A DNA stretch of 64,000 nucleotides from a virus (IMGVR_UViG_3300031746_002125:1-64000), one strand, 5' to 3'; shown: positions 1 to 55,178, counted from the stretch's first letter. The notes: generated by a model from the sequence alone, not told the origin. Numbers and translations: made by a program.

Positions 1-111
1 GAATCTTTGCCGGATATAAATAAATCTACACTATCAGAGTTTGTCTCGAATCCTTTGATAAAAAGATCGAAAATATTCGCAACAAAATCTTTGCCAGACA
101 AGAAGAGATCT
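1..111. repeat. Exact ~110-bp duplication of 3256-3366 inside the giant gene
   Basis: GAATCTTTGCCGGATATAAATAAATCTACAC...AAGAAGAGATCT at both sites; ~868-934 also recurs at ~2358-2426. Confidence 0.9.
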
Positions 112-13421: not shown

Positions 13422-15200
13422 TTAATACAAAGGATAGATATAACGGAATTTGGGAGAAATCGCAATTTTAATTAGATCTCTTTCTTCAGCAAGTTGTTTT
13501 TCTGATTTATCAACATTTTTTATTCTTCGGCAACATGATTTGTGTTTTAATTGATTATCAGACGGATCAAAATAAGAATAACTATTAGAAGTTTTACCGG
13601 CCTTTTGCCATCCAGACATTCTATAGATTCCACCATTATGACCAACGGATGTATCGGCATAAGAAACCAATGTTTTAATATCTTTCATATTATTTCTTAT
13701 ATAATTTATACAAAGATTTATAAATGTAGATCCATACGGTCTTATTACATAAAATGGGACGCACAATCTTGTTAATTCCAATATATTTTTATCAAGATTT
13801 TTATTTGCTCCTCTCCCAAATGTTGCAATTCCGGTGATAATATTGCCAATTCTTGCAACCAATATCGTTGAGGCATTTGGTATTGTTCCAAGATAGTGTT
13901 CATATCTGATTGTATTTTTAATTTCGTCTCTTTGGCCTTTAAATAAAATAGATTTCGACGCATCAATTTTGCCACCAGAATTAAATAATAACGTATCATT
14001 TTCTGTCAAGCTAGAATTATTTAAAGCGTATTCGGGGAAAGCTTTCCATATTCTCCACCATGGATGTCCATTTAAATCAAATTTTTCTATTTCTTTATGT
14101 TCAGATTCGAGAATTACTAAGCCATTATTTTCATCATAAAATCGTTCGTCATGGTATACGGCTAACTTTTGAATATGTCCCTCTAAAGGTTTGTGTTTTG
14201 TTTCAACAGTTTTTAATATTATAGAAAATGGAATAATGTGATGACAGTGTAAATGTCCACCCATTTTAGATATTTGGCTTTTATAGTCATATTTATTAAA
14301 TAAATTTGTTCTCCAGTTAATATAATTAGAACCATGTCTAACCATATCTGCTATTTCAGTAATTCCACCTTTCCAATTCCAGTTATTTTCTCCTATGTTT
14401 TTTCTTGTTTCCTTATTTATAGATTCAAATCTTTTCTGTGTAAACCCCCTATTTTTATTAAAATGTTTATCTATTAACTCCAGTGTCATACCAAGATCAT
14501 CATACATTTTAATTAATTCTTGATCTGTTATATGGCTTGTCCCCTTGTTTTTTCTACTAGTTTCTGATAAAGATCTTGTTCCTTTGCCAGATTCTATAAG
14601 CCTACTTTTAACAAATGTTACACTTTTATTAATAATTTTTGAAATTGCAAGAGCATCTAGTCCATTGTTCCAATATAGGTCTACGACTTGTTCTATTGAT
14701 ATATCCTTACATCTATTTTGTTCCCACGGTTTCCTTATTTTAATATTTAATTTTTTTAATTTTCTTTTTATGGTATTGCCTGATGTGTTAAATTTTTTGC
14801 CTATCTCTATTAAAGATTTTTGTTGATCAACATATAAATTTATTAATATATCGTTATTAATTAGATCTGTCTTATGGGACTTTTCTTGTGCCATGGAACA
14901 ACCTCTTGTATTCTTGTGGGAGTCTTTTAAAATTCTATTTATTAAACCAACACTCCTGCCTAATTTTTCTGCTGTTTGTTTTAAAGTTAAACCTTGTTTC
15001 CAATATAGTTCGATAACCTTTTCTTCTTCTGGAATATTTTTACGCTCAATAACAGGTTTAACATTTATGCCAAGTTTTTTTAATCTTCTGCTAACACAAG
15101 ATTCGCTAACTTTTAAAAATTTTGCACAATCTCTTCCAGATAGAGAATCTTCTACATACAATTTTAATAAAAGTTTTTCATCTACGTCAATGATTTTCAT
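13422..15200 (-). CDS. Tandem HTH + HNH + Mom-like GNAT fusion
   Basis: About five HTH repeats; NWKGGIT..HCHHIIPF..NNGL HNH; HYL..ELTRL..LVSYAD..GH.GGIYR.SGW Mom-like motifs. Confidence 0.75.
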   Translation of the reverse strand: MKIIDVDEKLLLKLYVEDSLSGRDCAKFLKVSESCVSRRLKKLGINVKPVIERKNIPEEEKVIELYWKQGLTLKQTAEKLGRSVGLINRILKDSHKNTRGCSMAQEKSHKTDLINNDILINLYVDQQKSLIEIGKKFNTSGNTIKRKLKKLNIKIRKPWEQNRCKDISIEQVVDLYWNNGLDALAISKIINKSVTFVKSRLIESGKGTRSLSETSRKNKGTSHITDQELIKMYDDLGMTLELIDKHFNKNRGFTQKRFESINKETRKNIGENNWNWKGGITEIADMVRHGSNYINWRTNLFNKYDYKSQISKMGGHLHCHHIIPFSIILKTVETKHKPLEGHIQKLAVYHDERFYDENNGLVILESEHKEIEKFDLNGHPWWRIWKAFPEYALNNSSLTENDTLLFNSGGKIDASKSILFKGQRDEIKNTIRYEHYLGTIPNASTILVARIGNIITGIATFGRGANKNLDKNILELTRLCVPFYVIRPYGSTFINLCINYIRNNMKDIKTLVSYADTSVGHNGGIYRMSGWQKAGKTSNSYSYFDPSDNQLKHKSCCRRIKNVDKSEKQLAEERDLIKIAISPKFRYIYPLY

Positions 15201-22970: not shown

Positions 22971-23918
22971 CTATCCTATTGATACACAATTATTAAAATA
23001 TTCTTTCTTTTTATTCCATTCGTGTAAATTATTATCATTTTTACTAGAATTACAATTTTTACATAATAATGAAAGATTTTTTAAATCAAATAAATCTATA
23101 ATTTCTTTTTCGGTTTTGGCCGTTGCAAGAGGAATGATATGATCTATACTTATTTTACATTTATCGTAACAAACTTTGCACGATGGACATTTATTATTTT
23201 GTAATTTTTTAATATTTTCAAGATGATTAAATAAATCCTTAATGCCATAGCTCAGGTGACGAAAACACCCCTTGGTTTTTAAAGCATTGTTTTTTGATAT
23301 TCTTTTAAGGCCGTCTCCCATGCGATGCCTTAAATTGTGTGCAAATTTATTAATTGGATTTTCTAACCATTTTTTACGCCACTTTCTTTCCCTTTCTTTT
23401 CTTTTAATTCTTATTTCCTCTATTTCATCTCTTTTTTTAGCACAAAATTTTGCACACAATTGACATCTCAAACCATTATTCTTCTTATTTATTTGATGTT
23501 TACATATTCCGTGCTTAGGACAAGAGGCTAATGCGACCGTTTTACTGAGTAGATTGATTATTTCTCTGGGGCGTTTCCCATCTCTATATTTTGTATGCAA
23601 ACCAAGACGATTAATTTTATGCCTAGTTCTATATATAGATTTTTTTAATTTATTGGCACACCAAGTTGCGCCCTTTTCCGGATAAAATTCTGTTAGAATA
23701 TTCACCTCGGCTTTTGTCCAACTGGTTTTTTGTTCTATGTTAAAACATCCACAACTTTTTGTATTTCCATTTTGTAAACAATATCCTAAAATTACTTTTT
23801 CGTTTCCGCAATCGCACCTACATAACCATAGATATTGTCCATGACTATTTTTCCCACAACATTTAATCGGAGTCAATCTTCCAAATTTTTTCCCTGTTAA
23901 ATCAATTAATTTACCCAC
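22971..23918 (-). CDS. HNH homing endonuclease
   Basis: GTG start just after the TerL stop; DLTGKKFGRL..WLCRCDCG; SIDHIIPL..CKNCNSSK. Confidence 0.85.
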   Translation of the reverse strand: MGKLIDLTGKKFGRLTPIKCCGKNSHGQYLWLCRCDCGNEKVILGYCLQNGNTKSCGCFNIEQKTSWTKAEVNILTEFYPEKGATWCANKLKKSIYRTRHKINRLGLHTKYRDGKRPREIINLLSKTVALASCPKHGICKHQINKKNNGLRCQLCAKFCAKKRDEIEEIRIKRKERERKWRKKWLENPINKFAHNLRHRMGDGLKRISKNNALKTKGCFRHLSYGIKDLFNHLENIKKLQNNKCPSCKVCYDKCKISIDHIIPLATAKTEKEIIDLFDLKNLSLLCKNCNSSKNDNNLHEWNKKKEYFNNCVSIG

Positions 23919-23919
23919 T

Positions 23920-26031
23920 TTAAATTTTTTCTCCTTGTTTAATCCCCCCCAGCGCGTCGGAATATTTCTTTTTGTTCGTATTCTCCATTGCTCCACAACC
24001 TGCTCCTCGATAAAGTCCGTGGTTTGGGTTTGTCTTTATGAGTTGGAAGTTGCCCGGAACATCATCATAGCTTATCGGCATTGTTGGTGCAGCATCTATG
24101 GTGTAAACGTACTTGTGGGCGATCAATAGTGACGTGTACCTATCTTTCCTCAATCTACCCTTCTTCTGCCTGCCCTCCATAATCGCTCCTGTTATGACGC
24201 TAGGGGTCGAGAAATGTTCTTTCCCACTTGGGGTCTCGCTACGTTGGATGGTGCAAATTTCATTCTTTAATTCCTCAATATTATAAATATTTTCTTCGTA
24301 TGTGTCATTAGTAATATTAAGAGCCTTTTCAGCAATTAAAGAAGATTGCATGATAGTGACATCAAAGGCCGGAAACAATAATCTTTTTGTCTCAAATGAT
24401 TTGTGAAGAGCAGCGTTTGCATAAGCATTGAATTCCGAAGTAGGTTGAACGAGATGTAAAATATGCGGCCCATCCGTTTCACCATCGGTAGGTTTCAAAT
24501 GATCCACATCAATAATCTCGTAAACGGGAACCTCCCCCTTTTCTTTGTCGAGTCCCTTTTTTGATCGTAGCATTTCAGAAATTGGATATCCGCATCCCTG
24601 ACTATCCATTTCAATTCTAATTGGTTCAAATAATCTAATCAATTCTCTAATTTTTGAACAACAATAATCATAATAATCTATTTTTTCATCTATTAAACCA
24701 CCCTTTTTCTTTTTATTAAATTCTGGTTTATTTATAGCCCAACAATAAACAACCCTGTAATGATTAGGCCATGCTTCTAAAATGGTGATACCAAATCTGT
24801 CGCTTTCTGCTCCGGGGTCTATTCCAAAAATATATTTTCTTCCTCTAATTCCTCGCATCATTGGCGTAAAGATAACTTCGCCATCCGGTGTCATTATAGA
24901 TTTATTCGGAGTTGTGGTGCATGATTCAATTAAACTTCTACAAAAATAACCGTCCGAATCTTTAACAAATAATCCTTCGTACTCCATTAAATAGATATTC
25001 TTTGGAAGTGTAGCCTTCGCATTAGCCAACATTCTTTTGTCAAGCAAACCTTCTGGCAAAAAAGAACTGGGTATTCTAATTATTGCATAATCTTTATAAT
25101 TAAAATTCTTGGGAATATTATTAAATCCACCAAATATTTCTGATATTTTGTTAATGTCTCCTTTGCTTTCTATTATTTTTTTCCACATATCAAATTTTTG
25201 TGCGAAATGATTAAATTGATAATATGCGGTTCCAGCACATATTATTTGATTTCCATCTTTTTGTGGTTCAATAATTTGTTGTTTTATATCATCGTTTATA
25301 TTCAATGCTTTTAATCTTTTTTCTATAGCTAAATGTTTTGCGGTATCAACAGGAGTTTTAGTTGTCGAAGCAAACCCCTGAACCACAGTGTTAAAAATCT
25401 CCTCTGGAATTGATGAATATTCATCGGCTATAATTGTTGAAGCTCTAAATCCCCTAATTTTTTCTCCCGTTCCTAGTGGCAATGCAGTTATTATAGATTG
25501 CCCAATACGAAAATAACAGAGATCAACATTTTGGCGCGGACCAGCAGTTTTTCCTCCACCGATAATACTACGTAAAACGGGAGCGTTGCTCCATATTGTT
25601 TCTATATAACTAAATACAATCCTTGCTTGGCGCAAGCCTGCTCCAATAATTACAACTTTACTTCCTTGGTCAAGAAGTGCTCTTAAAATTGCATATGTAG
25701 CAAGACAAAAGCTTTTTGCGCCACCTCTCGCCGCAACAAGCAAAGGAAGTGGTGTTTTCCAAAGTATTTGAAGAATTGCAATCTGATAAGGAAAAAGCTC
25801 GATGTTAAGAATATATTTTGCAGTCCACGCTATATTGTCTATATTAAGCATTTCTTTAACGATATATTTATCTAAACGTTCACCAGAAGTTTTTAGGTCA
25901 GAAAAAATATGCTCGTCGATTATCGGGGTAGTTTCTCTGTATGGAAAAAGATAAGAAAATTCACCCTGATACCCAGTAAGAATATCTTGTATTTCAGCAG
26001 AAATTTCTTGTTTTATTCCGATATTATCCAT
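23920..26031 (-). CDS. terL: Terminase large subunit
   Basis: PYQ, Walker A ARGGAKS, KIRGFRASTIIADE Walker B, nuclease GIDP..D..KDRY. Confidence 0.9.
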   Translation of the reverse strand: MDNIGIKQEISAEIQDILTGYQGEFSYLFPYRETTPIIDEHIFSDLKTSGERLDKYIVKEMLNIDNIAWTAKYILNIELFPYQIAILQILWKTPLPLLVAARGGAKSFCLATYAILRALLDQGSKVVIIGAGLRQARIVFSYIETIWSNAPVLRSIIGGGKTAGPRQNVDLCYFRIGQSIITALPLGTGEKIRGFRASTIIADEYSSIPEEIFNTVVQGFASTTKTPVDTAKHLAIEKRLKALNINDDIKQQIIEPQKDGNQIICAGTAYYQFNHFAQKFDMWKKIIESKGDINKISEIFGGFNNIPKNFNYKDYAIIRIPSSFLPEGLLDKRMLANAKATLPKNIYLMEYEGLFVKDSDGYFCRSLIESCTTTPNKSIMTPDGEVIFTPMMRGIRGRKYIFGIDPGAESDRFGITILEAWPNHYRVVYCWAINKPEFNKKKKGGLIDEKIDYYDYCCSKIRELIRLFEPIRIEMDSQGCGYPISEMLRSKKGLDKEKGEVPVYEIIDVDHLKPTDGETDGPHILHLVQPTSEFNAYANAALHKSFETKRLLFPAFDVTIMQSSLIAEKALNITNDTYEENIYNIEELKNEICTIQRSETPSGKEHFSTPSVITGAIMEGRQKKGRLRKDRYTSLLIAHKYVYTIDAAPTMPISYDDVPGNFQLIKTNPNHGLYRGAGCGAMENTNKKKYSDALGGIKQGEKI

Positions 26032-46013: not shown

Positions 46014-46522
46014 CTTTCTCTGTTTTTGATTTTTGAAATTGTTTGGGGTACTACTTTAAAAATATTACTAATTTCTTTTTGGGTTAAATATCCGTCTTCT
46101 AACAATCTATTAATTACTCTAATTTTCCAATCATTTAATTTTGCTCCGGGATTTTCTTCTCCAATTTTATAAAGCCAAATAGGGTCTTGAATACATCTCC
46201 CGTGCTTAACCATGTCCTTTTGATTGTTCTTATGGGTATCACATCTTAGATTTTCAATTAAATTATTTTTAGGGTTTCCATCGTTGTGACATATTTCCAT
46301 TCCTTGCGGGCAAGGATCGAAAAAGGATTCAAACATCAATCTATGTAGAAGAAAATTTCTTCCCCTATCATTATTATATAATCTGACATATAAATACCCG
46401 CCGCTTCCTATATATGGTTTAATAATTCTTTTTCTTGGGCTTTTCTTCCCTGCTATTCCTTTTACAAGAGAAGTCTCTGAAATTTGATATAGTCCTTCGT
46501 AGCCTGGAATATCTTTCCACAT
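45989..46522 (-). CDS. NUMOD4-HNH homing endonuclease
   Basis: WKDIPGYEGLYQIS; CHNDGNPKNNLIENL. Confidence 0.9.
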   Translation of the reverse strand: MWKDIPGYEGLYQISETSLVKGIAGKKSPRKRIIKPYIGSGGYLYVRLYNNDRGRNFLLHRLMFESFFDPCPQGMEICHNDGNPKNNLIENLRCDTHKNNQKDMVKHGRCIQDPIWLYKIGEENPGAKLNDWKIRVINRLLEDGYLTQKEISNIFKVVPQTISKIKNRERWKHVSIN

Positions 46523-46645
46523 ATCTAATTATACGAATAAACGAGTAATTATTTTGAGAAAAGAGGGTGAATAGTGTGGTTCAAAGAATCTTGATTTATA
46601 CTTTGAAGACGATTTGATATCCGGCTTAGTCTTCGCCCCCAGCAG

Positions 46646-46896
46646 TTTTCGGACCATAGGCTTCGAATTATCGGACGGCATATAACTACCACACCCTTAT
46701 CGGACCTAATTGGCCAGACGCCAATTATAGGACCGCCCATTATCGGACGAGCATATAGAGAAGGTTATCGGGCTTATACTTATAGGACGTGGACGCGGGG
46801 AGGGAAAAAGATTATGGGAGCACGGGATATAGGACTATACATTATGGGACGATGTGCCGCTCGTGCCGATGCCAAAAACATGCTCGGTTATCGGAC
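46646..46896 (+). repeat. Array of 9-mer TTATCGGAC-type direct repeats
   Basis: Copies at 46646, 46668, 46697, 46725, 46740, 46765, 46780, 46812, 46827, 46842, 46888. Confidence 0.9.
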
Positions 46897-46918
46897 GATA
46901 AAAATTTTTTATTTTCGT

Positions 46919-46946
46919 TTGCTTACCTGCGATTCTATTCTACAAT
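46919..46946 (+). promoter_or_regulatory. Sigma70-type promoter
   Basis: TTGCTT-16-TACAAT with an AT-rich UP element. Confidence 0.6.
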
Positions 46947-47214
46947 TAGGTTGGCAATAGGGCCGACAAGGAGAAGAAAATGGTACTAGGAATAACAATC
47001 GGAACGGGCGCGGTGGTGATGATGGTGATTATGATGATTAAGACCAGCTTAGAAAATGCTGGCAACACCTACGGGCGGCGGAGCGTTTGCGGACGTTCGG
47101 CTCGGTGGAACAGGAGGGTGCGATAATGTTTACAATGATCGGACTAGGATTTCTCATGGTGGTTATCGGAGCGGTGAAGGTGTGGTGGGAATTATCGGAA
47201 TAAAGGAGAGCTTT

Positions 47215-47370
47215 ATGTGGACGCTAGTTATCTGGACATCGCCGAACGACAGCGCATCCTACGATTATCGGACGAGAATGGAAGCGTTGGCTATCGGACG
47301 TAATTGCATCGACGCCTATGCAGTTGAATTATACGGACCTGACGGCGAGTATGAAGGATTTTCGGACTAG
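47215..47370 (+). CDS. Small early protein
   Basis: AAGGAG RBS; MWTLVIWTSP; preceded by two short hydrophobic ORFs. Confidence 0.6.
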   Translation: MWTLVIWTSPNDSASYDYRTRMEALAIGRNCIDAYAVELYGPDGEYEGFSD

Positions 47371-47381
47371 GAGGTGCTGTG

Positions 47382-47621
47382 ATGATGAAAGCAACACTTG
47401 AAGTTTTCTGGCCAAGCGACCCAACATTTTCGGACGCTGACAAGGTTTCGCGGTACGATAATCTTTGGGACGATTGTGTGATGATAGACGCGAGAATAGC
47501 AGCCCTTTGTGGTGGACACGCCATCGCGACACTATCGGACGGCTACCGGGTCGAATACATCTCGGACGATTGCGAGCCGACTGGTTATCGGACTAAAGGC
47601 GTACCATGTGAAACGGTCTGA
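47382..47621 (+). CDS. Small early protein
   Basis: AGGAGGT RBS; followed by a terminator. Confidence 0.7.
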   Translation: MMKATLEVFWPSDPTFSDADKVSRYDNLWDDCVMIDARIAALCGGHAIATLSDGYRVEYISDDCEPTGYRTKGVPCETV

Positions 47622-47638
47622 TTATCGGACGAAGGACC

Positions 47639-47663
47639 GGGCCGAATTATCGGCCCTTCTTTT
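47639..47663 (+). terminator. Intrinsic terminator
   Basis: GGGCCGA-ATTA-TCGGCCC-TTCTTTT. Confidence 0.8.
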
Positions 47664-47677
47664 GCGCTGATCGGTTT

Positions 47678-47868
47678 GGTCCTATAAAAATCACTGCTTG
47701 TAAAATCGTAACTTAACTGCGAATTATGGGACCAGGCATATATTACTTCGTTTATGTGCGTTTCCTGCGGGATGTTATCGAATCATGCAAATAATATCGA
47801 AGAATTCCTATAATAATTGAGACATTATCATTAAAAATCAACATTTTATTGGCCTATCCTCGTATAAT
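47678..47868 (+). repeat. ~190-bp degenerate non-coding repeat, copy 1 (others ~49074-49276, ~49824-50030)
   Basis: Shared blocks GGTCCTATAA, AAATCGTAA..AACTGC, TATATTA(A)CTTCG, AATAAT, ATAATAA..ACAT. Confidence 0.85.
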
Positions 47869-47873
47869 ATATT

Positions 47874-48389
47874 ATGGGAACTATCCGGGAAATAAAGGTT
47901 ACAGGACGTAATTATGAATTATCGGTCCTTGTCGATGAAGAAGATTATCAGACGTTAAGGTTATGGGAATATGGTTTGTCCAGAATTATAGGACTTGATA
48001 CAACCTACATACAGACTTATAAAAAGGGCAAAAGGGGTTATCTCCATCGTCTTATTATGGGGGTTTCGGACGCGACAACGTCCATTTTCGTAGATCATAT
48101 TGACCATAATGGGCTTAATAATTCTAGGACCAACCTACGTATTACCAATAATAAGGGTAATCAGCGCAATTCGCGCAAACGATTATCGACAAAACGAACA
48201 AGCTCCTATAAAGGAGTTTATTTTTCTCACAATAATAAGATGAACCCCTGGTTAGCATCCATTCATCTATCGGACAGTAGAACACATCTGGGATATTATA
48301 GGACCGAAATAGAAGCGGCTCACGCCTATAATAAGGCCGCTATCGAGCATTTCGGCGACATGGCCAACCCGAACATTCTCGGACCATAA
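47874..48389 (+). CDS. HNH-AP2 homing endonuclease
   Basis: YLHRLIMG..VDHIDHNGLNNSRTNLR; SSYKGV..W.A.I..LG..EAA.AYNKAA. Confidence 0.9.
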   Translation: MGTIREIKVTGRNYELSVLVDEEDYQTLRLWEYGLSRIIGLDTTYIQTYKKGKRGYLHRLIMGVSDATTSIFVDHIDHNGLNNSRTNLRITNNKGNQRNSRKRLSTKRTSSYKGVYFSHNNKMNPWLASIHLSDSRTHLGYYRTEIEAAHAYNKAAIEHFGDMANPNILGP

Positions 48390-48417
48390 AATTTTTCAGA
48401 TTTTTATTATTTGGACC

Positions 48418-48446
48418 TTGACTTTTGTATGGTTCCCGCCTATACT
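48418..48446 (+). promoter_or_regulatory. Sigma70-type promoter
   Basis: TTGACT-17-TATACT. Confidence 0.85.
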
Positions 48447-48501
48447 CCTACAGTAGTACGGGACAACGAAATGATGTTTTTTTCGGACGGGGGAAAGGGC
48501 G

Positions 48502-48807
48502 ATGAAAAGGCCGCTATTATCAGACGACATGGTGGATATGAAGTTAGCTAGTCTGGAAAAATTGCAGTATCGCTTGGAATTAACGGGGCCGATAATGTTC
48601 TGGAAAGCAGAAGTGATCGGACCATTCGGCTCGGAGTTTTTCGGACGGTCCAGTAACGGGCCAACGACCGATAAAGCTATCGAGCGACTTAAATTGCAGC
48701 TTGAACGAATCGGGTTTATCGGACTACTGATTGAAAGCCCGATAATCGGAAAAGATTATTCGGACGACGATCTGTTATCGGACGAAGAAGTCCCTGACGA
48801 GTTATAG
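48502..48807 (+). CDS. Small early protein
   Basis: ORF downstream of the promoter; acidic tail. Confidence 0.65.
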   Translation: MKRPLLSDDMVDMKLASLEKLQYRLELTGPIMFWKAEVIGPFGSEFFGRSSNGPTTDKAIERLKLQLERIGFIGLLIESPIIGKDYSDDDLLSDEEVPDEL

Positions 48808-48826
48808 GACGATAAGGGGGTGTAAA

Positions 48827-49027
48827 GTGTTGCTGAAAAAAAGAACGTATTTCTTGACGAATGTTATCGGCGAATCTTGTTTGGTCCGAGTATTCGTTGC
48901 GACGGCAAACGCAAACATCGTCTTTATGGGACGCCAGAATTTCCTTCCGATAAGACGTGCCTTTTCCGAGCAAGGGGAAACGACATTAGCGGACGATGAC
49001 GAGGGCGAAGAGTGGAAAGACCGATAA
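48827..49027 (+). CDS. Small early protein
   Basis: AAGGGGG RBS; ends DDDEGEEWKDR. Confidence 0.6.
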   Translation: MLLKKRTYFLTNVIGESCLVRVFVATANANIVFMGRQNFLPIRRAFSEQGETTLADDDEGEEWKDR

Positions 49028-49300
49028 ACTAGCGGGACAAAGAAGTTATAGGACTAGGGAACCGATCGGCCTTGGTCCTATAATTTGCGCCTACGGCACA
49101 GTTATAGGACTCCCTTATAATGTTAAAATCGTAATTAAACTGCTTTTTATAGGACGTGGCATATATTACTTCGCCTGCGAGCGTTTCCTTCGGGACATTC
49201 TAGGATCATGCCAATAATAACGAAACTGCCCATAATAATAAAGACATGCCGATTGAAAAACGATATATTATCAGACTAAAAGATTTTCTTGTCGGGCGAC

Positions 49301-49329
49301 TTGACTTCGGCGGTCGGCTTGCATATAAT
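49301..49329 (+). promoter_or_regulatory. Sigma70-type promoter
   Basis: TTGACT-17-TATAAT. Confidence 0.9.
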
Positions 49330-49402
49330 TCAATATGACCGAACGCGATAGCCTATAGTGTTATGGGCGAGCGTAAAGTCGATCCATTATAGGAGCTCCA
49401 AT

Positions 49403-49735
49403 ATGTCGGCAACCGCAGTAGTTTCAAGCCCAGTAACCACCAGCAAAGTTCACGAAAAGGAATTTTTGACGACCGCGCAGGACTACGCGCGTGACCGCAA
49501 GGGCATAGATTGGCTATCGTCCCAACCCAACCCAGACGAGGCTATCGACCGCGTTATGAAGGTTATTGGCCGCCTTCAGAATATGGTTGCCAACGGTTCG
49601 GACTATACTCCAGCCGCGCAGCTCGGCTTCGGGTCCGCTAACGCCTCAACCATCGCGTCCGGTATTCTCGGCGCAGGCTTGACGGGTTCGCAGATTCGCA
49701 AGCTGTTCGCAACCGTAGGCAAGCCGAAGGCATAA
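49403..49735 (+). CDS. Monocistronic GC-rich early protein (110 aa)
   Basis: Own promoter, AGGAG RBS, own terminator. Confidence 0.8.
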   Translation: MSATAVVSSPVTTSKVHEKEFLTTAQDYARDRKGIDWLSSQPNPDEAIDRVMKVIGRLQNMVANGSDYTPAAQLGFGSANASTIASGILGAGLTGSQIRKLFATVGKPKA

Positions 49736-49769
49736 TTTTCGGACCTCGACGACTTATCGAGGAACGAAT

Positions 49770-49808
49770 TATCGGACGGGAGACGCGGGTTTCTCGTCCG
49801 ATATTTTT
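49770..49808 (+). terminator. Intrinsic terminator
   Basis: TATCGGACGGGAGAC-GCGG-GTTTCTCGTCCGATA-TTTTT. Confidence 0.85.
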
Positions 49809-50030
49809 GCGCGGATTTATATGGTCCTATAATTTTCACTGCATGGTAAATCGTAAAATAACTGCAATTATAGGACGTGGATTATATTAACTTCGTTTGT
49901 GCAAGATTTTCTAAGACATTCTCGGATAATACCAATAATATCAACTATGCCTATAATAAAGAGAACATATCGATTGAATAAATAGATATTATAGGAATCC
50001 CATAATTTTTATTGGGTTCGGACGTATAAT

Positions 50031-50129
50031 TATAGGACCGAAGAAGAAGCGGCAACAGCCTATAATAAAGCAGCTATCGAATTATTCGGACCTATTGCCT
50101 TCCTCAATATATTACCGGACCAAAAATAA
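50031..50129 (+). pseudogene. 3' remnant of an HNH-AP2 gene
   Basis: Translates YRTEEEAATAYNKAAIELFGPIAFLNILPDQK*, versus YRTEIEAAHAYNKAAIEHFGDMANPNILGP in 47874; no start codon. Confidence 0.85.
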
Positions 50130-50155
50130 TTTTTTTGATTTCTGGTTATAAGACC

Positions 50156-50184
50156 TTGACATTTCGGTTCTGCAAGCATATAAT
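50156..50184 (+). promoter_or_regulatory. Consensus sigma70 promoter
   Basis: TTGACA-17-TATAAT. Confidence 0.9.
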
Positions 50185-50391
50185 ATAATAGTATTTTCGG
50201 ACAAAAGAAGGTTGATCTGGACGAGTTTTCGGACGACGGGAAGATGGGCGATATGCGCACTTTTTCTTCTTATAGGACTAATTATTAGGACTACGATTTT
50301 ATCGGAGGTTCCATATAATTTCTGTCTTGGCATCGTATTATTCAAAGACTTATCGGGTGGTGCCAATAATCATTTTATTTTACCCAAAGGC

Positions 50392-50420
50392 TTGACTATC
50401 GTTGACTACGAGCATATAAT
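50392..50420 (+). promoter_or_regulatory. Sigma70 promoter of the ncRNA candidate
   Basis: TTGACT-17-TATAAT. Confidence 0.9.
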
Positions 50421-50424
50421 TAGA

Positions 50425-51048
50425 TAGCCGAATGCGCAGCGACCCGATAACTTCGGGAACGGTCGATAATTCGACCCGATATAGGCTTATTATATGCCAT
50501 AAGCCCGCACGGTTCGGTTAGTCTGATAAGGGCGAGTAGCGCAAGGTAAAGTAGTTCTTTACTTGAAGCGCCAGCGAAGGGTTTTGTTATCGGCCCTGAC
50601 TTCGGGCAATGCCCGATAAAAGGTTCTCATTCGGACGGGAGCGTCCGATAAGGACGGAAGCCCGATAATAAGTCCGCGCTATCTAGGGCGCACTCCCTAG
50701 TGAGAGTCCGATAAGTTGTTCGGACAAGGGCGCAAGTCCCCTAGTCAGTCCCATAATCAATTCATGGAAGTCTCCCGACAAGAGCAGAATTAAAGTGGGG
50801 TCTCAACTGGTTATCGGCGGCGCGTCTGTCAACCCGAATAACTTGGGCGATAACTAAGTTCTTATCGGTCCAACGGATTCTCGAAGTATTATTGAAGCGA
50901 TACTCCTTCCATTGAAGCTATGGTCAAGTCTTGTGCAACGATTCGCTCGCGTAATTATCGGGTCTTGTAAGCAAGTCAAAGCTTACTTCGGTCTATTGTC
51001 GAGCGATAGTGTGAGACTTCAATCGCTGGTGGATGCCGCTTTCGGCTA
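50425..51048 (+). ncRNA. Large structured ncRNA candidate (~620 nt), family unassigned
   Basis: Starts 4-5 nt after the -10 box; no ORF of 60 aa or more; GC-enriched; complementary ends; >10 hairpins and long-range helices. Confidence 0.75.
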
Positions 51049-51360
51049 AGGTCGATTGTTCGGGTTCGATAACTGGTCAATAATACTCAAACCAACTTTC
51101 AATTCAAAGGGCATGATTATCGGATGAAGTTTTGGTCCGAAAAGATTCTGCCCTTCTCGTCCAATAACTCTCCAGTCCAAAAGCTACGACCCATAAATAA
51201 GGGCAAAAACACGGGAAAAGGTCAAAGTCCAAATAAAGAAAAACTGCCTGCAATTTTTTCGCAGAGTCAGAATCTTTTTTGGATCAATGAGATTTCCGGG
51301 GTCCGGCTCTTTTTAGAGCTCCTTGGGTTTGCGCCAGGATTCGCGGTATTATTGGATGTT

Positions 51361-51434
51361 TTCCGTATAAGTGTAATGGTAGCACACTTCTGGGCATACC
51401 GGAAGAAGTCTAGGTTCGACCCCTAGTACGGAAA
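51361..51434 (+). tRNA. Atypical tRNA-like RNA with CAT-centred enlarged anticodon loop
   Basis: TTCCGTA/TACGGAA acceptor; D arm GTG-TAATGGTAG-CAC; CTTCT-GGGCATACC-GGAAG; T arm CTAGG-TTCGACC-CCTAG. Confidence 0.7.
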
Positions 51435-51465
51435 ATTATTATTGGGCTTCGTCGTATAATGGTTC

Positions 51466-51918
51466 ATGGGATCGGTCTGTCTAAAACACAACAAAGAAAG
51501 AGACGCTTCAAGGCATTGTCCAGAATGTCGCAAAGATTATACCCTTAGTGAAAAGGGACGTAAGGCGATTACGGAGTACGAAAATTCCAAAAAGAGAAAA
51601 GAGTCCAAAAAAAGAAACAGGTCAACCGATAAAACAAAGTACTCGGACGGACAAAGACAAAGGGAATACCTCAATACACCAGAAGGAAGGTTGAAGTACG
51701 GAGCAAGAAACTCTGTACATTACGCAATCAAAAGGGGTAACTTAACCAAGCTCCCCTGTCAAATATGTGGGAACCCAAAGTCCGAGGCCCATCACTATCT
51801 AGGTCATTCCAAGGAACATAGATTACATGTAGTGTTCCTCTGCAAAAAGCATCATTACCAAGCCGACCACGATCCGGCCTTTAACGAAACTCTCAAACCA
51901 GACGGCCTCATCGTCTAA
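51466..51918 (+). CDS. HNH-like endonuclease ending inside tRNA-Glu
   Basis: PCQICG..SEAHH..V.FLCKKHH..H. Confidence 0.8.
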   Translation: MGSVCLKHNKERDASRHCPECRKDYTLSEKGRKAITEYENSKKRKESKKRNRSTDKTKYSDGQRQREYLNTPEGRLKYGARNSVHYAIKRGNLTKLPCQICGNPKSEAHHYLGHSKEHRLHVVFLCKKHHYQADHDPAFNETLKPDGLIV

Positions 51919-51976
51919 TTGGCTAGGATAGTACCCTTTCAAGGTACAGATACGAGTTCGAGTCTCGTTGAGGCTA
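51904..51976 (+). tRNA. tRNA-Glu(TTC)
   Basis: GGCCTCA/TGAGGCT acceptor; GTACC-CTTTCAA-GGTAC; ACGAG-TTCGAGT-CTCGT; no encoded CCA. Confidence 0.92.
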
Positions 51977-52015
51977 TAAACCAATGTTCATTTTTTAAGA
52001 GGAGGTCTGCGCAAA

Positions 52016-52183
52016 ATGAAAGTAGTTATGTCAGTGAATGTAGGAAAATACGGAGAGGGCAAGGTAGTTGAAATTGTCCAAGCGGCTTCGGACTGGGTAA
52101 GGACCAAGAAAGGAACGTATCTGCAAAAGGACTTCGTTCGAGAAATTGGAGGAAATTCGATAGGGAAGGAAGTTGTGATCTAG
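52016..52183 (+). CDS. 55-aa hypothetical protein
   Basis: AGGAGGT RBS; MKVVMSVNVGKYGEG... Confidence 0.65.
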   Translation: MKVVMSVNVGKYGEGKVVEIVQAASDWVRTKKGTYLQKDFVREIGGNSIGKEVVI

Positions 52184-52207
52184 AGTCGCGTTCCGTCCGC
52201 GATTCGT

Positions 52208-52320
52208 TTGCTGTGAGTGTGTGTCGGAGTCATAATTTAGATTCCGGAAGGATAGACACGTCACGCGGTCGGGCTCCGTACCGACCAGTGAAATTAGTTG
52301 TTCGATTCAACTACAGCAAA
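52208..52320 (+). ncRNA. tRNA-like RNA with expanded D arm and 8-nt anticodon-position loop
   Basis: TTGCTGT/ACAGCAA acceptor; AGTTG-TTCGATT-CAACT T arm; GGTCGG-GCTCCGTA-CCGACC arm; nested D-arm helices. Confidence 0.7.
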
Positions 52321-52350
52321 TTATTATTGGACAAGTTAGTATAATGTCTC

Positions 52351-52914
52351 ATGGAAGAGGTATGTCCGGTCAAAACAAGGGAAATCAAGTTGGGCGGAAG
52401 CAAGGGTCTGTCTACAATAGTCGATGAATCGGACTTTGTTTCCCTCAATCTTGGTTCATACCGATGGTGCCCAACGGTAAGTCCCACCTTGACGTATGCG
52501 GTAGCCAATAACGGAAAACGTCAAGTAATCTATCTCCATCGTCTGATAATGGGACTTATAAGTGGTCCTCGGTCTGTGTGCGTAGACCACATCGACCACA
52601 ACGGTCTCAATAATTCCAGAAGCAATCTGCGCATAACAAACCAAAGCGGGAATATGAGAAACGTGCGCAAAAAATATGCAAACAAAAGCGCTTCTCCTTA
52701 TAAGGGAGTTACACGGAGATTAAAAGCCAAATCAAATCCGTGGAAAGCGAAGATTCGACAAGGAAACAAAACCAAACACCTTGGAGTCTATCCAACAGAA
52801 ATCGAAGCGGCACAAGCATATAACAAGGCGGCGATCGAACTTTTCGGCGAGTTCGCGTGTCTAAATAAACTCCCCTGGTTGAAAAGGAGAAGCCATGAGT
52901 CGTGTCTACAATAA
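52351..52914 (+). CDS. HNH-AP2 homing endonuclease
   Basis: VDHIDHNGLNNSRSNLR; YKGV..WKAKI..LGVY..EAAQAYNKAA. Confidence 0.9.
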   Translation: MEEVCPVKTREIKLGGSKGLSTIVDESDFVSLNLGSYRWCPTVSPTLTYAVANNGKRQVIYLHRLIMGLISGPRSVCVDHIDHNGLNNSRSNLRITNQSGNMRNVRKKYANKSASPYKGVTRRLKAKSNPWKAKIRQGNKTKHLGVYPTEIEAAQAYNKAAIELFGEFACLNKLPWLKRRSHESCLQ

Positions 52915-53356
52915 GTTAGAGAATCCGGCTTTACAGTTCTCTCTTTTACATAGAGTGGGGAGAGAATTTTGTGAAAGGGTAGTAAAAGGAAAAAGATTCA
53001 AGGAAGATAGTCTGACCGAGATTGCTGGTAACGGCGTGTATGGGTTTCAAAGCAGAAGACAAAAACGAGAGGTATCCTCGATGGTTCAAACAATTGACGG
53101 AACCGGACTCAAGAAGGCGAAGAAAACTGCTTGTAAACCAAGGAAAGAGGTTTGCAAATTAGTAACCAGTTTTCAGGCATATTGGGCAAGTCTCGATCCC
53201 GAAGAGAAGAAGCGGAGAAAAGACGAGCAGGACAAAAGAATTAGGGCTAGGAACAGAAACAGAAGGGCGATATACGGGCGTCGAAAAGTTGTTGTATTCA
53301 CGACCAACCAAACCAGAGGAAAGAGAGGTGGATTAACAACTACTCCCAGGACTTAA
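52895..53356 (+). CDS. Basic hypothetical protein
   Basis: AGGAG RBS; K/R-rich. Confidence 0.6.
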   Translation: MSRVYNKLENPALQFSLLHRVGREFCERVVKGKRFKEDSLTEIAGNGVYGFQSRRQKREVSSMVQTIDGTGLKKAKKTACKPRKEVCKLVTSFQAYWASLDPEEKKRRKDEQDKRIRARNRNRRAIYGRRKVVVFTTNQTRGKRGGLTTTPRT

Positions 53357-53857
53357 ATCATTAAGAATACCGAAATCACACAATTCTATAACAGCTTCGT
53401 TATAGGCTTTCGCCGCTTCTTTCTCTGTCCGAAAACTTCCTAGATATTTATTTTTTCCATCTATCCTAATACACGCCTGCCAGGGTTTTAATTTGCTATG
53501 AATGGTGTGTCGGGAAACACCCTTGTATCTCGAAGAAGTTTTCAATAATGTTTTATGACAATTGCGAGAGTTGCCGCTATTATTAGTGATTCGCAAATTG
53601 TTCTTTGAATTATTGAGACCATTATGGTCTATATGATCGACATAAACAAAACAGGGCGAATTTACAACTCCCATGATAAGACGATGTAAATACACATTTT
53701 TGTCCTTTTTATAGGTTATAATATATGTCGTCTTATATCCCGGTATCCTACTCCACGAGTATTCCCACAGCCGAAGTCTCCAATAGTCCTCTTCGTCCAC
53801 GAAGGTAGTCACTTCATAATCACGTCCATACACCTTCATTTCCCGAATTTGTTCCAT
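53333..53857 (-). CDS. HNH-AP2 homing endonuclease, paralog of 47874
   Basis: VDEEDY..LRLWEY; VDHIDHNGLNN; AP2 domain. Confidence 0.9.
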   Translation of the reverse strand: MEQIREMKVYGRDYEVTTFVDEEDYWRLRLWEYSWSRIPGYKTTYIITYKKDKNVYLHRLIMGVVNSPCFVYVDHIDHNGLNNSKNNLRITNNSGNSRNCHKTLLKTSSRYKGVSRHTIHSKLKPWQACIRIDGKNKYLGSFRTEKEAAKAYNEAVIELCDFGILNDLSPGSSC

Positions 53858-53929
53858 AATCCAATTATACCAACAACCGCAATTATTCTTTTGTCAAGCA
53901 TAAAACCGAGAAGTAGGATTTATTGAAAC

Positions 53930-54002
53930 GGCCCGTTAGTTTAATAGCTTAAAACCGCTACCTTATAAGTAGCAGAACACGGAGCGTAACCGTGACGGGC
54001 CA
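53930..54002 (+). tRNA. tRNA-Ile(TAT) with atypical D and T loops
   Basis: GGCCCGT/ACGGGCC; GCTAC-CTTATAA-GTAGC; CACGG-AGCGTAA-CCGTG. Confidence 0.8.
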
Positions 54003-54083
54003 TTGTTTAAGGAGAATTAAAATGAAGATTTTTTGTTTGACGTTTTTAATTACCTTGAGTCTGTGGTTTGGGGGAGGCTGTTT

Positions 54084-54832
54084 ATGAGAACTATCAAATT
54101 AAGAACAGAAGAAGGTATGACCGACCAAGAAATCAGAGAAACAGCTAGGAAGTCTCCTAACGGGGAATACGCGACTGAAATATGTAAGGGTTGCGGTTCT
54201 TACAAAGTAGACCCAGAAGGAAATCTGACAAAAGCAAAAATTGTTGGCACTTGTCGAGAATGTGTAGTTCTAGTCTAAAACTCCTCAAGAAGAATCAGAC
54301 GTTTTCTTGGGGTTCGTTTTTGGGCTAAAAACCCATATAAAAGGAGAAGAGAATGATCGTATCCGCAATTAAGACCATTGAAAAGGTCGCAAATGGCATC
54401 CCTCTCCAGTTTTTGTCAAAAGAAGAGAGAGGATGTGTCCATTATTTCTTTGGCGATGATTTTGTTTATGTTAAGGCTTCTCTTTTTATGAAACGACTCA
54501 TAAGTCTTTGCGCGTAAACGACTTACAGAAGAAAGGTAAGAAAAATGACAAACTTTTGGGCCTATTTCATCCTCGGACTATGTGTGGGAATCGGAATTGA
54601 ACTAATCTTCCGTCCAATAGAGCGAATTTTCAGGAAGTAAGCTTAAGTCGGCCAATCACTAGAATCTTTTGTCCCGCTTAGGGCCTTTTTCTCATAAAGT
54701 GGCATTTCCAGGTCAAAAACGGACATCTCAGAGGGAAAATATGAGTAATGACCAGATATTATCATGGCTTTTCTTCTTTTTCTTAATGTTTATTGTTTAT
54801 TGGCATTGGTTTTTGGAGGAAAAGAAGCAATA
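54084..54832 (+). other. Several microprotein ORFs (54084-54278, 54353-54517, 54545-54640, 54740-54832), two hydrophobic
   Basis: Each has a purine-rich RBS; boundaries approximate. Confidence 0.5.
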
Positions 54833-55178
54833 ATGTAGTTCCAGAAGATAATCCGTAACTATATTTCAGCCTTTTAAGTAAAAAAAGAGATAAATAAAGC
54901 CATTATTCAAGTCTTTTAGGGCATTTTTTCGGACCCTTTTTGTGTATAAAAACGTTGTTCCCAGCCTCAGAACGCCATTTTTCGGACCATCATAAAGCAT
55001 TAGCGGTCCTTCAAAGAGTATTCGGGCAATAGCAAAGTGATATCAAAAAGATACAGAGTCCGGCTCTTTGTCTGGTACACCACCGAGACCCATTTTTCAC
55101 CACTTCAAACCACTAAACCCGTATTTCTTAGAACACACTTCTTCGACAAAAGTATGGGTGCTAGACGTATAATATAGG

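Follow-up and report, generated by a model that had tools for sequence, protein, structure and literature searches.

An oriented 9-bp word repeated along the early genes of a phage and its possible use as a stoperator-like field

The window analysed here is a 64,000-nt stretch of DNA from an uncultured large phage, taken from a 72,449-bp (72.4-kb) record. It contains a point from which leftward and rightward gene arms diverge, a series of rightward genes and promoter-like sites, and a large structured RNA with tRNA genes on its 3' side (Table 1). The gap at the divergence point and its left flank are 53–70% A+T in 100-nt windows, and repeats begin at 46,646. The zone had been said to begin at the transcription strand switch, which is what the ORF strand map shows, and the composition profile places the cumulative GC-skew minimum at the same position. 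The first small ORF is preceded by a Shine–Dalgarno-like AAGGAG, and a similar hydrophobic peptide was found by eye in G010, a complete relative of 165.5 kb. A PHROG search with the 80-aa ORF returned no match. Read by eye, the first promoter-like site lies near 46,925–46,955, 3' of the first dense cluster of repeats, and a consensus promoter scan of the + strand over 46,300–47,100 found none. In G010, the first cluster of 9–10 copies is likewise 5' of the first promoter-like site.

Table 1. Features of the divergence point, the rightward early block and the adjoining RNA genes (positions in the window)
Feature	Position	Strand	Remarks
Divergence gap, leftward versus rightward gene arms	46523..46645	.	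A+T-rich; cumulative GC-skew minimum
Oriented TTATCGGAC field	46646..50307	+	49 + / 12 − copies within 1 mismatch (tally of match list); conserved in relatives
First dense cluster	46646..46896	+	9 copies with at most 1 mismatch in 250 bp; non-coding
Small ORF, hydrophobic N-terminal half	46980..47126	+	First of several short ORFs in the field
80-aa ORF, GGAGG in front	47379..47621	+	Word in two frames: FSD, LSD, ISD versus GYRT
Regulatory cassette copy 1, ~200–250 bp	47630..47880	+	Hairpin, TTTTGCGC, conserved blocks, −10-like boxes
Terminator-like hairpin	47639..47656	+	Half-word TTATCGG within 3' arm and loop
HNH-AP2 homing-endonuclease-type gene, mobile	47874..48389	+	PHROG 99, E 1e-32
Sigma-70-like promoter	48418..48446	+	10/12
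Gene A, conserved 101-aa protein, VxGPFHSxxYG family	48502..48807	+	Homologues in 24 loci
Regulatory cassette copies 2, 3	49,040–49,300; 49,770–50,010		Repeat search
Sigma-70-like promoter	49301..49329	+	11/12; ahead of gene B
Gene B, conserved 110-aa helical protein, YTPxxELGFGSxNA	49403..49735	+	Conserved in relatives
Terminator-like hairpin, 15 pairs	49770..49803	+	Word and its complement
AP2-domain gene fragment	50029..50110	+	73% identity to 48,295–48,376
Sigma-70-like promoter	50156..50184	+	12/12
Sigma-70-like promoter	50392..50420	+	11/12; directly ahead of structured RNA
Structured non-coding RNA, ~780 nt, ends approximate	50421..51200	+	Own promoter
tRNA-Met	51360..51435	+	ARAGORN; first of three tRNA genes 3' of RNA

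The repeated word is TTATCGGAC, an asymmetric, non-palindromic 9-mer of pattern TTWTNGGAC. Strict counts of this pattern gave 32 copies on the + strand and 3 on the − strand in zone A (46,640–50,430), none and 5 in zone B (50,431–51,240), and 10 and 5 in the remaining 67.8 kb of the record. Local Markov nulls for the + strand of zone A had means of 0.33, 1.0 and 4.3 at orders 1, 2 and 3, and a mean of 11.0 with a maximum of 25 at order 4 (300 simulations), so the field reported in the first-pass annotation stands out above local composition at each order. Its estimate of about 50 + strand copies also agrees with our 49 copies anchored on TNGGAC. When one mismatch was allowed, 3 + and 9 − matches were tallied in 50,308–51,240, and 23 of the 96 matches in the window fell outside 46,646–51,240. 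The copies, at ~8 sites per kb, occur in coding and non-coding DNA alike, as had been noted, and in all three reading frames. Logos of the copies revealed no consensus in the flanks; the 9-mer alone is conserved.

Three cassettes (mean column identity 75% when aligned) repeat within the zone, each a terminator plus promoter-like unit of ~200 bp that contains the word, and contigs of other runs skip or replace parts of the zone. One of them, in run X3, joins 47,411 to 48,325 and so skips most of the HNH-AP2 gene. Both observations would suit a word that is merely part of a duplicated regulatory cassette or of a recombination seam, a by-product we regard as highly improbable: most copies lie outside the three cassettes, copies also fall within conserved codons, the flanks lack any consensus, and the identical word occurs in phages without detectable DNA similarity. 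The AP2 proteins had been put forward as readers of the word; since they are mobile HNH-AP2 endonucleases, one of them absent from the X3 contig stretch, they are unlikely to read a conserved field.

Conservation was assessed in 28 metagenome loci of related phages, on contigs of up to ~180 kb. Upstream of and through gene B, these loci carry 547 + and 52 − copies of the word; downstream of gene B the count is 31 + and 26 − over 86 kb. Exact forward and reverse copies of TTATCGGAC in four viral records number 20/2, 4/36, 1/16 and 14/3, and the reversed control word occurs 0–1 times in the same records. In each of the relatives the word is in sense orientation with respect to genes A and B. Apart from a single 44-nt blastn match, the zone in the window has almost no DNA similarity to the relatives' loci. 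A strand-biased field, with its word and its position unchanged, is conserved across the relatives while its flanks diverge. In G010, 28 of the 39 TTWTNGGAC copies (both strands) are within the first 5 kb and no other 5-kb bin holds more than one copy per strand; there, too, the field sets in where the cumulative GC skew is lowest, at the strand switch, and the skew maximum and the convergence of the genes lie ~84 kb away, half-way round. A polar chromosome word of the Chi or KOPS kind was rejected, as the genome-wide flipping bias is absent both from the rest of our record and from the bins of G010.

The modal spacing of the word is 25 nt (exactly 25 in 35 of 475 intervals, 24–28 in 98 of 475), and clusters of the same word in Bacillaceae are spaced at 21–23 bp. 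A step of 25 bp does not correspond to a whole number of helical turns, which counts against a protein reading the word on DNA. Intergenic clusters of the word, ~500 bp long and made of direct and then inverted copies, also occur in a second phage lineage that is unrelated to the first. BLAST and profile searches found no regulator common to the two lineages.

Genes A and B are only ~30–45% identical to most of their relatives. Gene A carries the word at conserved columns and in all three frames, with 58 copies across 24 sequences. Its AlphaFold2 model (pLDDT 76.9) has the order alpha-beta-beta-beta-alpha-beta, that is, the alpha-beta-beta-beta-alpha order of a dsRNA-binding domain (dsRBD) plus a fourth strand. 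The structural matches are weak, with a best Foldseek E of 0.04 and VIA Z scores of at most 5.4, under the tool's stated noise level; dsRBD and HicB-N rows are tied, and about half of the best 50 VIA rows are dsRNA-binding domains. Pfam and PHROG searches with gene A gave no match. Gene B, modelled with a pLDDT of 85.4, had neither a family nor a fold match, and it forms the downstream boundary of the field in the relatives. Profile and structure searches revealed no DNA-binding family or fold for either protein.

Zone B was described in the first-pass annotation as the place where the polarity of the field flips, near 50.4 kb. Reverse copies do outnumber forward copies between 50.4 and 51.2 kb, but they are few, and the 5 observed lie within the range of the order-4 null (mean 2.0, maximum 8); the half-word TTATCGG is present 5 times on each strand. 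No + strand ORF of at least 50 aa exists between 50,428 and 51,123, and the fold z of the region is −5.15. Of 232 base pairs in the RNA, 62 show double (compensatory) changes, compared with 21.6 ± 3.4 in shuffled and 5–12 in slid alignments. Eight of ten reverse-like copies are base-paired in this covariation-supported structure, several of them with forward-like partners. The helices that pair the word with its complement are the invariant ones in sequence: in helices 9, 15 and 30, 12 of 16, 9 of 12 and 8 of 11 pairs never vary. Rfam searches gave no match in the window at gathering score, none in 46,400–51,500 at E up to 5, and none in the loci of five relatives at E up to 1. Following gene B in the relatives is a large structured non-coding element of ~950 nt, positioned like the zone B RNA, with a conserved GUCCGAUAAG hairpin; one relative has a tRNA-Asp gene ~1 kb 3' of gene B. 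A covariance model built on the relatives' RNA (R1, 149 positions) finds locus L255 at E 0.002 and, with filters off, the window at an E of only 0.27. Zone B is a separate structured-RNA gene. Since its reverse copies belong to this structure and the relatives have no reversed field, the apparent flip is not a reversal of the field, and the polarity switch is confirmed only in part.

The same results bear on the proposal that the words point toward a terminus near 50.4 kb and would mark the end of the genome or the start of packaging, or serve to control injection or to protect ends in the manner of Chi, which we now consider very improbable. The arrangement of + copies to the left and − copies to the right would suit Chi-like guarding of two ends, but the right-hand copies are part of the RNA structure. 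In four large contigs (160,023, 165,526, 165,642 and 139,974 bp) one end falls no more than 1.6 kb from gene B; here repeats make contig breaks expected. Unitig depth in run X1 is 34–37 over 48,336–55,027 versus 15–25 beside it, although contig depth is a sum over strains and gives no copy number. The public runs analysed are assembled contigs, which cannot show virion termini. The two ends of G010 overlap by 127 bp and so close the contig, and the large terminase weakly matches a T4-type family, T4 being a phage that packages by headful. Nothing ties a genome end, packaging start or first-injected DNA to this zone.

The oriented field itself, its strand bias, the fact that it runs in the same direction as genes A and B, its conservation beside diverging flanks, its 25-nt spacing and the strong sigma-70-like promoters inside it are direct observations. 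We infer from them protein binding, with DNA rather than RNA as the target and transcription as the process affected. A directional protein-binding field, as first suggested, is the most economical reading, and we tentatively favour, at somewhat less than even chances, a stoperator-like field whose orientation-dependent occupancy controls early transcription. Zone A would be a lineage-conserved landing field that starts at the divergence point of the gene arms and extends over the opening 3.7 kb of the early operons in the rightward arm. A single, putative sequence-specific protein would recognise the individual words in double-stranded DNA, with one unit for every ~25 bp, and the fixed orientation in which it faces RNA polymerase would let it control early transcription. 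The 25-nt spacing is what adjacent footprints predict. Because the first cluster lies 5' of the first promoter-like site (by eye, in the window and in G010), DNA is favoured over RNA, and a duplex-DNA reader is the simplest explanation for the direct-then-inverted clusters of the second lineage. The reader may also contact the zone B RNA, since the invariant helices there consist of the word paired with its complement.

Alternatively, the signal might operate at the RNA level, the words acting as UUAUCGGAC on early transcripts; we hold this unlikely. An RNA-binding protein, possibly gene A, would coat, stabilise, silence or process early RNA, or the words would pair with GUCCGAUAA copies in the large RNA next to them. 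The field keeps to the sense strand of both conserved genes and stops with the early block, its spacing is out of helical phase, and the neighbouring RNA offers the complement, in the relatives' hairpin and in 9 reverse-like copies in the window, with the word/anti-word helices being those invariant in sequence; the frequency of dsRNA-binding domains among the VIA rows for gene A points the same way. That fold match is, however, weak and tied with HicB-N-like folds, the first 9–10 copies precede any recognisable promoter, the second lineage has both orientations inside 500 bp, and most reverse copies in the large RNA are already paired internally. The 10:1 strand bias and the end of the field at the last early gene suit an RNA-level signal equally well. 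A more specific version, in which the ~50 UUAUCGGAC words on early transcripts would combine with the GUCCGAUAA words and with the invariant helices of the neighbouring ~0.8–1-kb RNA into a phage-encoded RNA–RNA–protein switch that a dsRBD-like gene A could read, strikes us as improbable. If true, such a switch would set the timing of the early block as a whole or turn it off, or else tie up an RNA-binding factor of the host. Alternatively, given that two unrelated lineages share the word, both might be exploiting a conserved host protein that binds it.

The position of the field also recalls a replication origin or copy-control array, in which the words would be iterons for an initiator beside an A+T-rich unwinding region, the large field would titrate or organise that initiator, and a replication primer could derive from the structured RNA. 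We judge this, too, unlikely. The coincidence of field start, skew minimum and strand switch in both the window and G010 fits such an origin, as do same-orientation direct repeats next to the A+T-rich gap and an iteron-like spacing here and in the Bacillaceae clusters; the direct-plus-inverted clusters of the second lineage resemble origins that load two helicases. But GC skew follows gene orientation here and so cannot separate replication from transcription, a field of 20–60 sites over 3–5 kb far exceeds known iteron origins, and it occupies just one side of the switch. Neither an initiator nor a helicase loader adjoins it, the neighbouring genes having no replication-family match; no DnaA box (TTWTNCACA) is present in 45.8–47.2 kb or in the equivalent part of G010, and the DnaA C-terminal domain (PF08299) is absent from 5 phage records.

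Among known systems, iteron arrays such as the lambda origin in gene O, P1 incC/incA and R6K share with the oriented field direct repeats of one orientation by an A+T-rich stretch, a spacing of 21–25 bp, possible overlap with coding sequence and location at the GC-skew minimum. The field differs in that its sites are tenfold more numerous and extend over kilobases, all to one side of the switch; its word is only 9 bp, and it has no recognised initiator gene. The RNA of zone B and the ~950-nt element of the relatives resemble GOLLD and ROOL, the large ornate phage-associated RNAs found beside tRNA genes, in being large, highly structured and non-coding, and the RNA in the window lies just 5' of tRNA genes; unlike these two Rfam families, however, zone B has no Rfam match and its helices derive partly from the word of the field and its complement. 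The promoter-early stem-loop (PeSL) cassettes of T4-type phages are similar to the three cassettes between the small early genes, a likeness that explains the long repeats only and not the 9-mer field. T7 short-repeat arrays fit poorly with a 3.7-kb field that overlays genes.

The closest parallel is with the operator/stoperator sites of Cluster A mycobacteriophages, bound by repressors such as L5 gp71 and that of TipsytheTRex; these are more than 20 asymmetric sites that are oriented with transcription and lose their effect when turned round (PMC9283540). Stoperators are 13 bp rather than 9 bp long, number 20–30 over the whole genome rather than ~8 per kb in one 3–5-kb block of one arm, and occupy promoters and short intergenic gaps, whereas field sites also lie inside codons. 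Cluster A phages have a cognate repressor with HTH and stoperator domains where the reader of the field is a putative protein, and the field word, unlike stoperators, serves two unrelated lineages. Both are short asymmetric words in many copies, oriented with transcription (here judged from ORFs and promoters) and placed in and downstream of early promoter regions, and in both a monomer-type reader would be expected; the field would then be comparable to the repressor–stoperator system of Cluster A, concentrated on one early block.

Copies of the 9-mer TTWTNGGAC (the word) crowd the plus strand of the window from 46,640 to 50,430 (zone A). The first-pass annotation had claimed roughly 50 plus-strand copies in this field, and 49 plus-strand and 12 minus-strand copies within one mismatch of TTATCGGAC were tallied from the match list between 46,646 and 50,307; only 23 of the 96 such matches in the window fall in the ~59 kb outside 46,646–51,240. 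The strict word occurs 32 times on the plus and 3 times on the minus strand in zone A, 0 and 5 times in zone B (50,431–51,240), and 10 and 5 times over the rest of the record, in agreement with its reported rarity elsewhere. Markov nulls of orders 1 to 4, trained on zone A itself, gave mean expectations of 0.3 to 11 plus-strand copies, and the highest count in 300 order-4 simulations was 25. Since the observed number exceeds that produced by local composition, we conclude that the field is real. Position-specific counts confine the conservation to the nine letters of the word. As annotated, the field begins where ORF orientation switches, and the cumulative GC skew, proposed earlier as a check, reaches its minimum at the same point.

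The window, which contains no N, is the initial 64 kb of one 72,449-bp virus record (CheckV completeness 43%) that is present in 13 public runs of sediment metagenomes, in all of them in contig form; no RNA run is among those listed. The record encodes a major-head-like protein, a T4-type large terminase N-domain, DNA methyltransferases, a Mom-family domain and numerous HNH and GIY-YIG endonucleases; blastn of 46,400–51,500 against the INPHARED phages returned no match. Several other features of the window were recorded. Positions 1–3500 have a G+C content of 26–29%, lack any ORF of at least 70 aa and carry an exact 33-nt repeat with copies around 890 and 2381, an offset of 1,491 bp. A 592-aa minus-strand ORF combines several HTH or sigma-70 region 4-like motifs with a Mom-family domain at its C terminus (E 9e-23); it is a possible DNA-modification enzyme carrying its own DNA-binding part. 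A terminase-like minus-strand ORF of 703 aa matches the large-terminase families in their N-terminal ATPase part only and is overlapped by a 341-aa ORF with an HNH domain; an interruption or fusion of the terminase gene is possible. Between 42,000 and 58,000, contigs from other sediment runs (X2–X4) omit or swap stretches, and the early block is a mosaic between strains. For example, 47,411 to 48,325 is missing, 48,750 to 49,137 is replaced by 603 other letters, and HNH genes near 52.2–52.9 kb are among the differing stretches.

Dense one-strand arrays, first found by scanning with a two-copy pattern, are present in several viral contigs. In four viral records the exact word occurs 20/2, 4/36, 1/16 and 14/3 times (forward/reverse), compared with 0–1 for a control word (the 9-mer read backwards), and is concentrated in a single zone of 1.5–4.4 kb in each. 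Two small conserved genes, A and B, lie inside the relatives' arrays, and the window has both. Scans with a gene B alignment yielded 6 viral and 44 metagenome loci, among them five near-identical strains of the phage in the window. Across those 28 of the 44 metagenome loci that have the most flanking DNA, the word occurs 547 times on the plus and 52 times on the minus strand between the start of the locus and the end of gene B (103.7 kb), compared with 31 and 26 downstream of gene B (86.1 kb), where 25 of the 31 plus-strand copies come from the window's own strains. All 16 viral loci with at least 20 one-strand copies have gene A except L053, itself the second piece of a contig possessing both genes, and 14 also have gene B. 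A three-copy pattern was found in 80 stretches of viral contigs versus 16 for the control word. Since blastn of the window's zone against the first 239 loci gave a single 44-nt match, the word has been held despite divergence of the DNA around it.

In a complete relative, G010 (165,526 bp, rated 100% complete, ends overlapping by 127 bp), the genes form two divergent arms meeting near 84 kb. Its array opens one of these arms and coincides with the lowest point of the cumulative GC skew. The field lies on one side of the strand switch only. With the array at the skew minimum in both phages, an origin or copy-control array is a serious alternative to a field of transcriptional control sites; a role in marking the genome end, as had been suggested, is unsupported, and the contigs of the public runs, aligned to the window, revealed no termini. 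Separately, the contigs behind L245, L256, L335 and L303 (160,023, 165,526, 165,642 and 139,974 bp) each have an end no more than 1.6 kb from gene B, which could reflect either assembly breaks at repeats or real ends. A further locus (L172, 3941–5810), in a record titled Candidatus Heimdallarchaeota MAG chromosome, carries 16 same-strand copies and a gene A homologue; its archaeal label could reflect a phage region or admixture in binning or assembly.

The preferred distance between neighbouring copies is 25 nt (of 475 spacings, 35 are exactly 25 and 98 are 24–28). The first 9–10 copies are non-coding and lie upstream of the first promoter-like site (read by eye), with short ORFs bearing Shine–Dalgarno-like sites downstream; the layout in G010, whose peptide was read by eye, matches. 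Further on, the word runs through coding DNA: 24 gene A sequences contain 58 plus-strand copies, which use each of the three frames and fall on conserved columns reading LSD or FSD, (V/I)IGx, (F/Y)YGT, FGT and FIGR, indicating that the nucleotide word shapes the protein. Gene B shows no enrichment, its 41 sequences containing 10 plus-strand and 24 reverse copies. Also present in the zone are four strong sigma-70-like promoters, two terminator-like hairpins partly composed of the word, and three copies of a regulatory cassette, in which a hairpin is followed by TTTTGCGC, a conserved AAATCGTAA..AACTGC..TTATAGGAC..GGCATATATT block and a TATAAT-like box. The three copies resemble mobile regulatory cassettes sited between early genes.

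Coordinates of features in the window, its relatives and the second lineage
Feature	Record or locus	Position	Strand	Remark
Gene A	window	48,502-48,807	+	101 aa
Gene B	window	49,403-49,735	+	110 aa
Sigma-70-like promoter	window	48,418	+	
Sigma-70-like promoter	window	49,301	+	
Sigma-70-like promoter	window	50,156	+	12 of 12
Sigma-70-like promoter	window	50,392	+	
Regulatory cassette, ~200-250 bp	window	47630-47880		mean column identity 75% (three copies)
Regulatory cassette	window	49040-49300		
Regulatory cassette	window	49770-50010		
592-aa ORF	window	13422-15200	-	
703-aa terminase-like ORF	window	22971-26031	-	
~950-nt element	L242	6311-7229		alignments A3, A4 (also the seven below)
~950-nt element	L243	6295-7207		
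~950-nt element	L245	6295-7181		
~950-nt element	L244	6329-7290		
~950-nt element	four more			
Second-lineage cluster	G011:C1	10279-10705		
Second-lineage cluster	G011:C1	14061-14918		
Second-lineage cluster	G012:C1	5045-5474		
Second-lineage cluster	G013:C1	54777-55064		
Second-lineage cluster	G015:C1	1-1650		

The first-pass annotation had described a flip in polarity near 50.4 kb. Reverse copies do outnumber forward ones there (3 plus, 9 minus within one mismatch of TTATCGGAC in 50,308–51,240), but pairing and covariation in zone B indicate a structured-RNA gene and not a reversal of the field. No plus-strand ORF of at least 50 aa was found between the promoter at 50,392–50,420 (11-of-12) and 51,124, and the zone B fold beats 20 of 20 shuffles (z −5.15). 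In an alignment of the window with three strains that are 83–87% identical (L299, L301, L302), RNAalifold predicted 232 pairs, with 95.8% of cells paired. Changes on both sides occur in 62 of these pairs, compared with 21.6 ± 3.4 after shuffling (0 of 500 shuffles reach 62) and 5–12 when partners were slid. Eight of the 10 reverse-like copies in zone B are paired, several to forward-like partners, and the invariant helices (9, 15 and 30) are those formed by word and anti-word. With the word recurring in such helices, a signal read at the RNA level is a serious alternative for the field itself. Eight related phages have a conserved non-coding element of ~950 nt at the same place, directly after gene B. 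Its first 382 alignment columns contain 96 predicted pairs, 36 with compensatory changes, and a conserved GUCCGAUAAG hairpin lies within it. A covariance model of part of this element detected locus L255 and not the window's RNA, and Rfam gave no family in the window's zone or the relatives' loci except a tRNA-Asp in L050. The relatives' element is a candidate new large phage RNA, and the RNA neighbouring the field, partly made from the field's word, may represent a new class of large, structured RNA in phages.

The word is also used by a second, unrelated lineage of phages (G011–G015, 28–98 kb, almost all genes on the same strand), in intergenic clusters of ~500 bp in which direct copies come first and inverted copies after them; the control word occurs 0–2 times per record. 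Neighbours of these compact clusters (radical SAM, AAA/BCS1, HD) showed nothing recurrent. The three-copy pattern was found in at least 120 stretches of bacterial genomes from many phyla, a raw count made without the control word, and whole-genome counts in five bacteria were 1.0–9 times control. Given these modest counts and the 16 viral control stretches, we make no claim of a universal word and draw no conclusion from the bacterial hits. Among these hits, five Bacillaceae loci (L140, L212, L205, L130, L230) carry intergenic (A/T)TATCGGACA arrays of 4–7 copies at 21–23-bp spacing (chance uncontrolled), which often follow a terminator hairpin and are present as tandem duplicates. A small protein whose CxxCH motif suggests haem binding (cytochrome c by eye) adjoins the array in five Bacillaceae species, four of which also have an ABC-transporter ATPase gene (FtsE-like by eye) nearby. 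Seven bacterial loci with word copies adjoin proteins that we take from their sequence to be AlbA_2/Schlafen-like.

Which protein might read the word was also considered. Genes A and B had no match in Pfam or PHROG. The gene A model (alpha-beta-beta-beta-alpha-beta, pLDDT 76.9) matched double-stranded RNA-binding domains best, tied with HicB N-domains, at Z ≤5.4, below the noise level of the tool; fold searches with the helical gene B model gave no match. The AP2 proteins, previously listed as candidate binders, were dropped, being mobile HNH-AP2 genes of which one is missing from the contig of another run. The DnaA box starts with the same five letters as the word, TTWTN; DnaA was rejected, since the surroundings lack a DnaA box and five phage records lack the DnaA C-domain. 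CsrA-type GGA sites, primase sites, Mom target sites and pairing with rRNA were entertained as possible identities of the word, but no sign in their favour emerged. Strings of the word or its complement, as DNA or RNA, occur in 237 papers; the 20 listed, judged by title and abstract, concern primers, siRNAs and the like, none of them relevant. BLAST and 80 family profiles revealed no regulator common to the two lineages. Since the families they share are structural or tail-fibre-like only, plus one weak match (E 3e-5), the reader is possibly encoded by the host, in which case the word would offer a handle on the hosts of these phages.

The economical interpretation is that the field consists of predicted protein-binding sites. 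We favour a putative duplex-DNA-binding protein acting on early transcription, because the field is co-oriented with transcription and starts ahead of the first promoter, and because the clusters of the second lineage are of mixed orientation. Since the field marks the first genes throughout a lineage of large phages, all uncultured, a role in controlling the onset of infection is probable, and the reader of the word, once found, would define a new orientation-dependent control module. Few signals are written through coding genes in three frames and stay unchanged while their surroundings diverge. Among known systems, stoperators (PMC9283540) offer the nearest precedent. Two stoperator features, intergenic placement and genome-wide spread, are missing here, suggesting that the field is a variant of the stoperator system and not a member of it.
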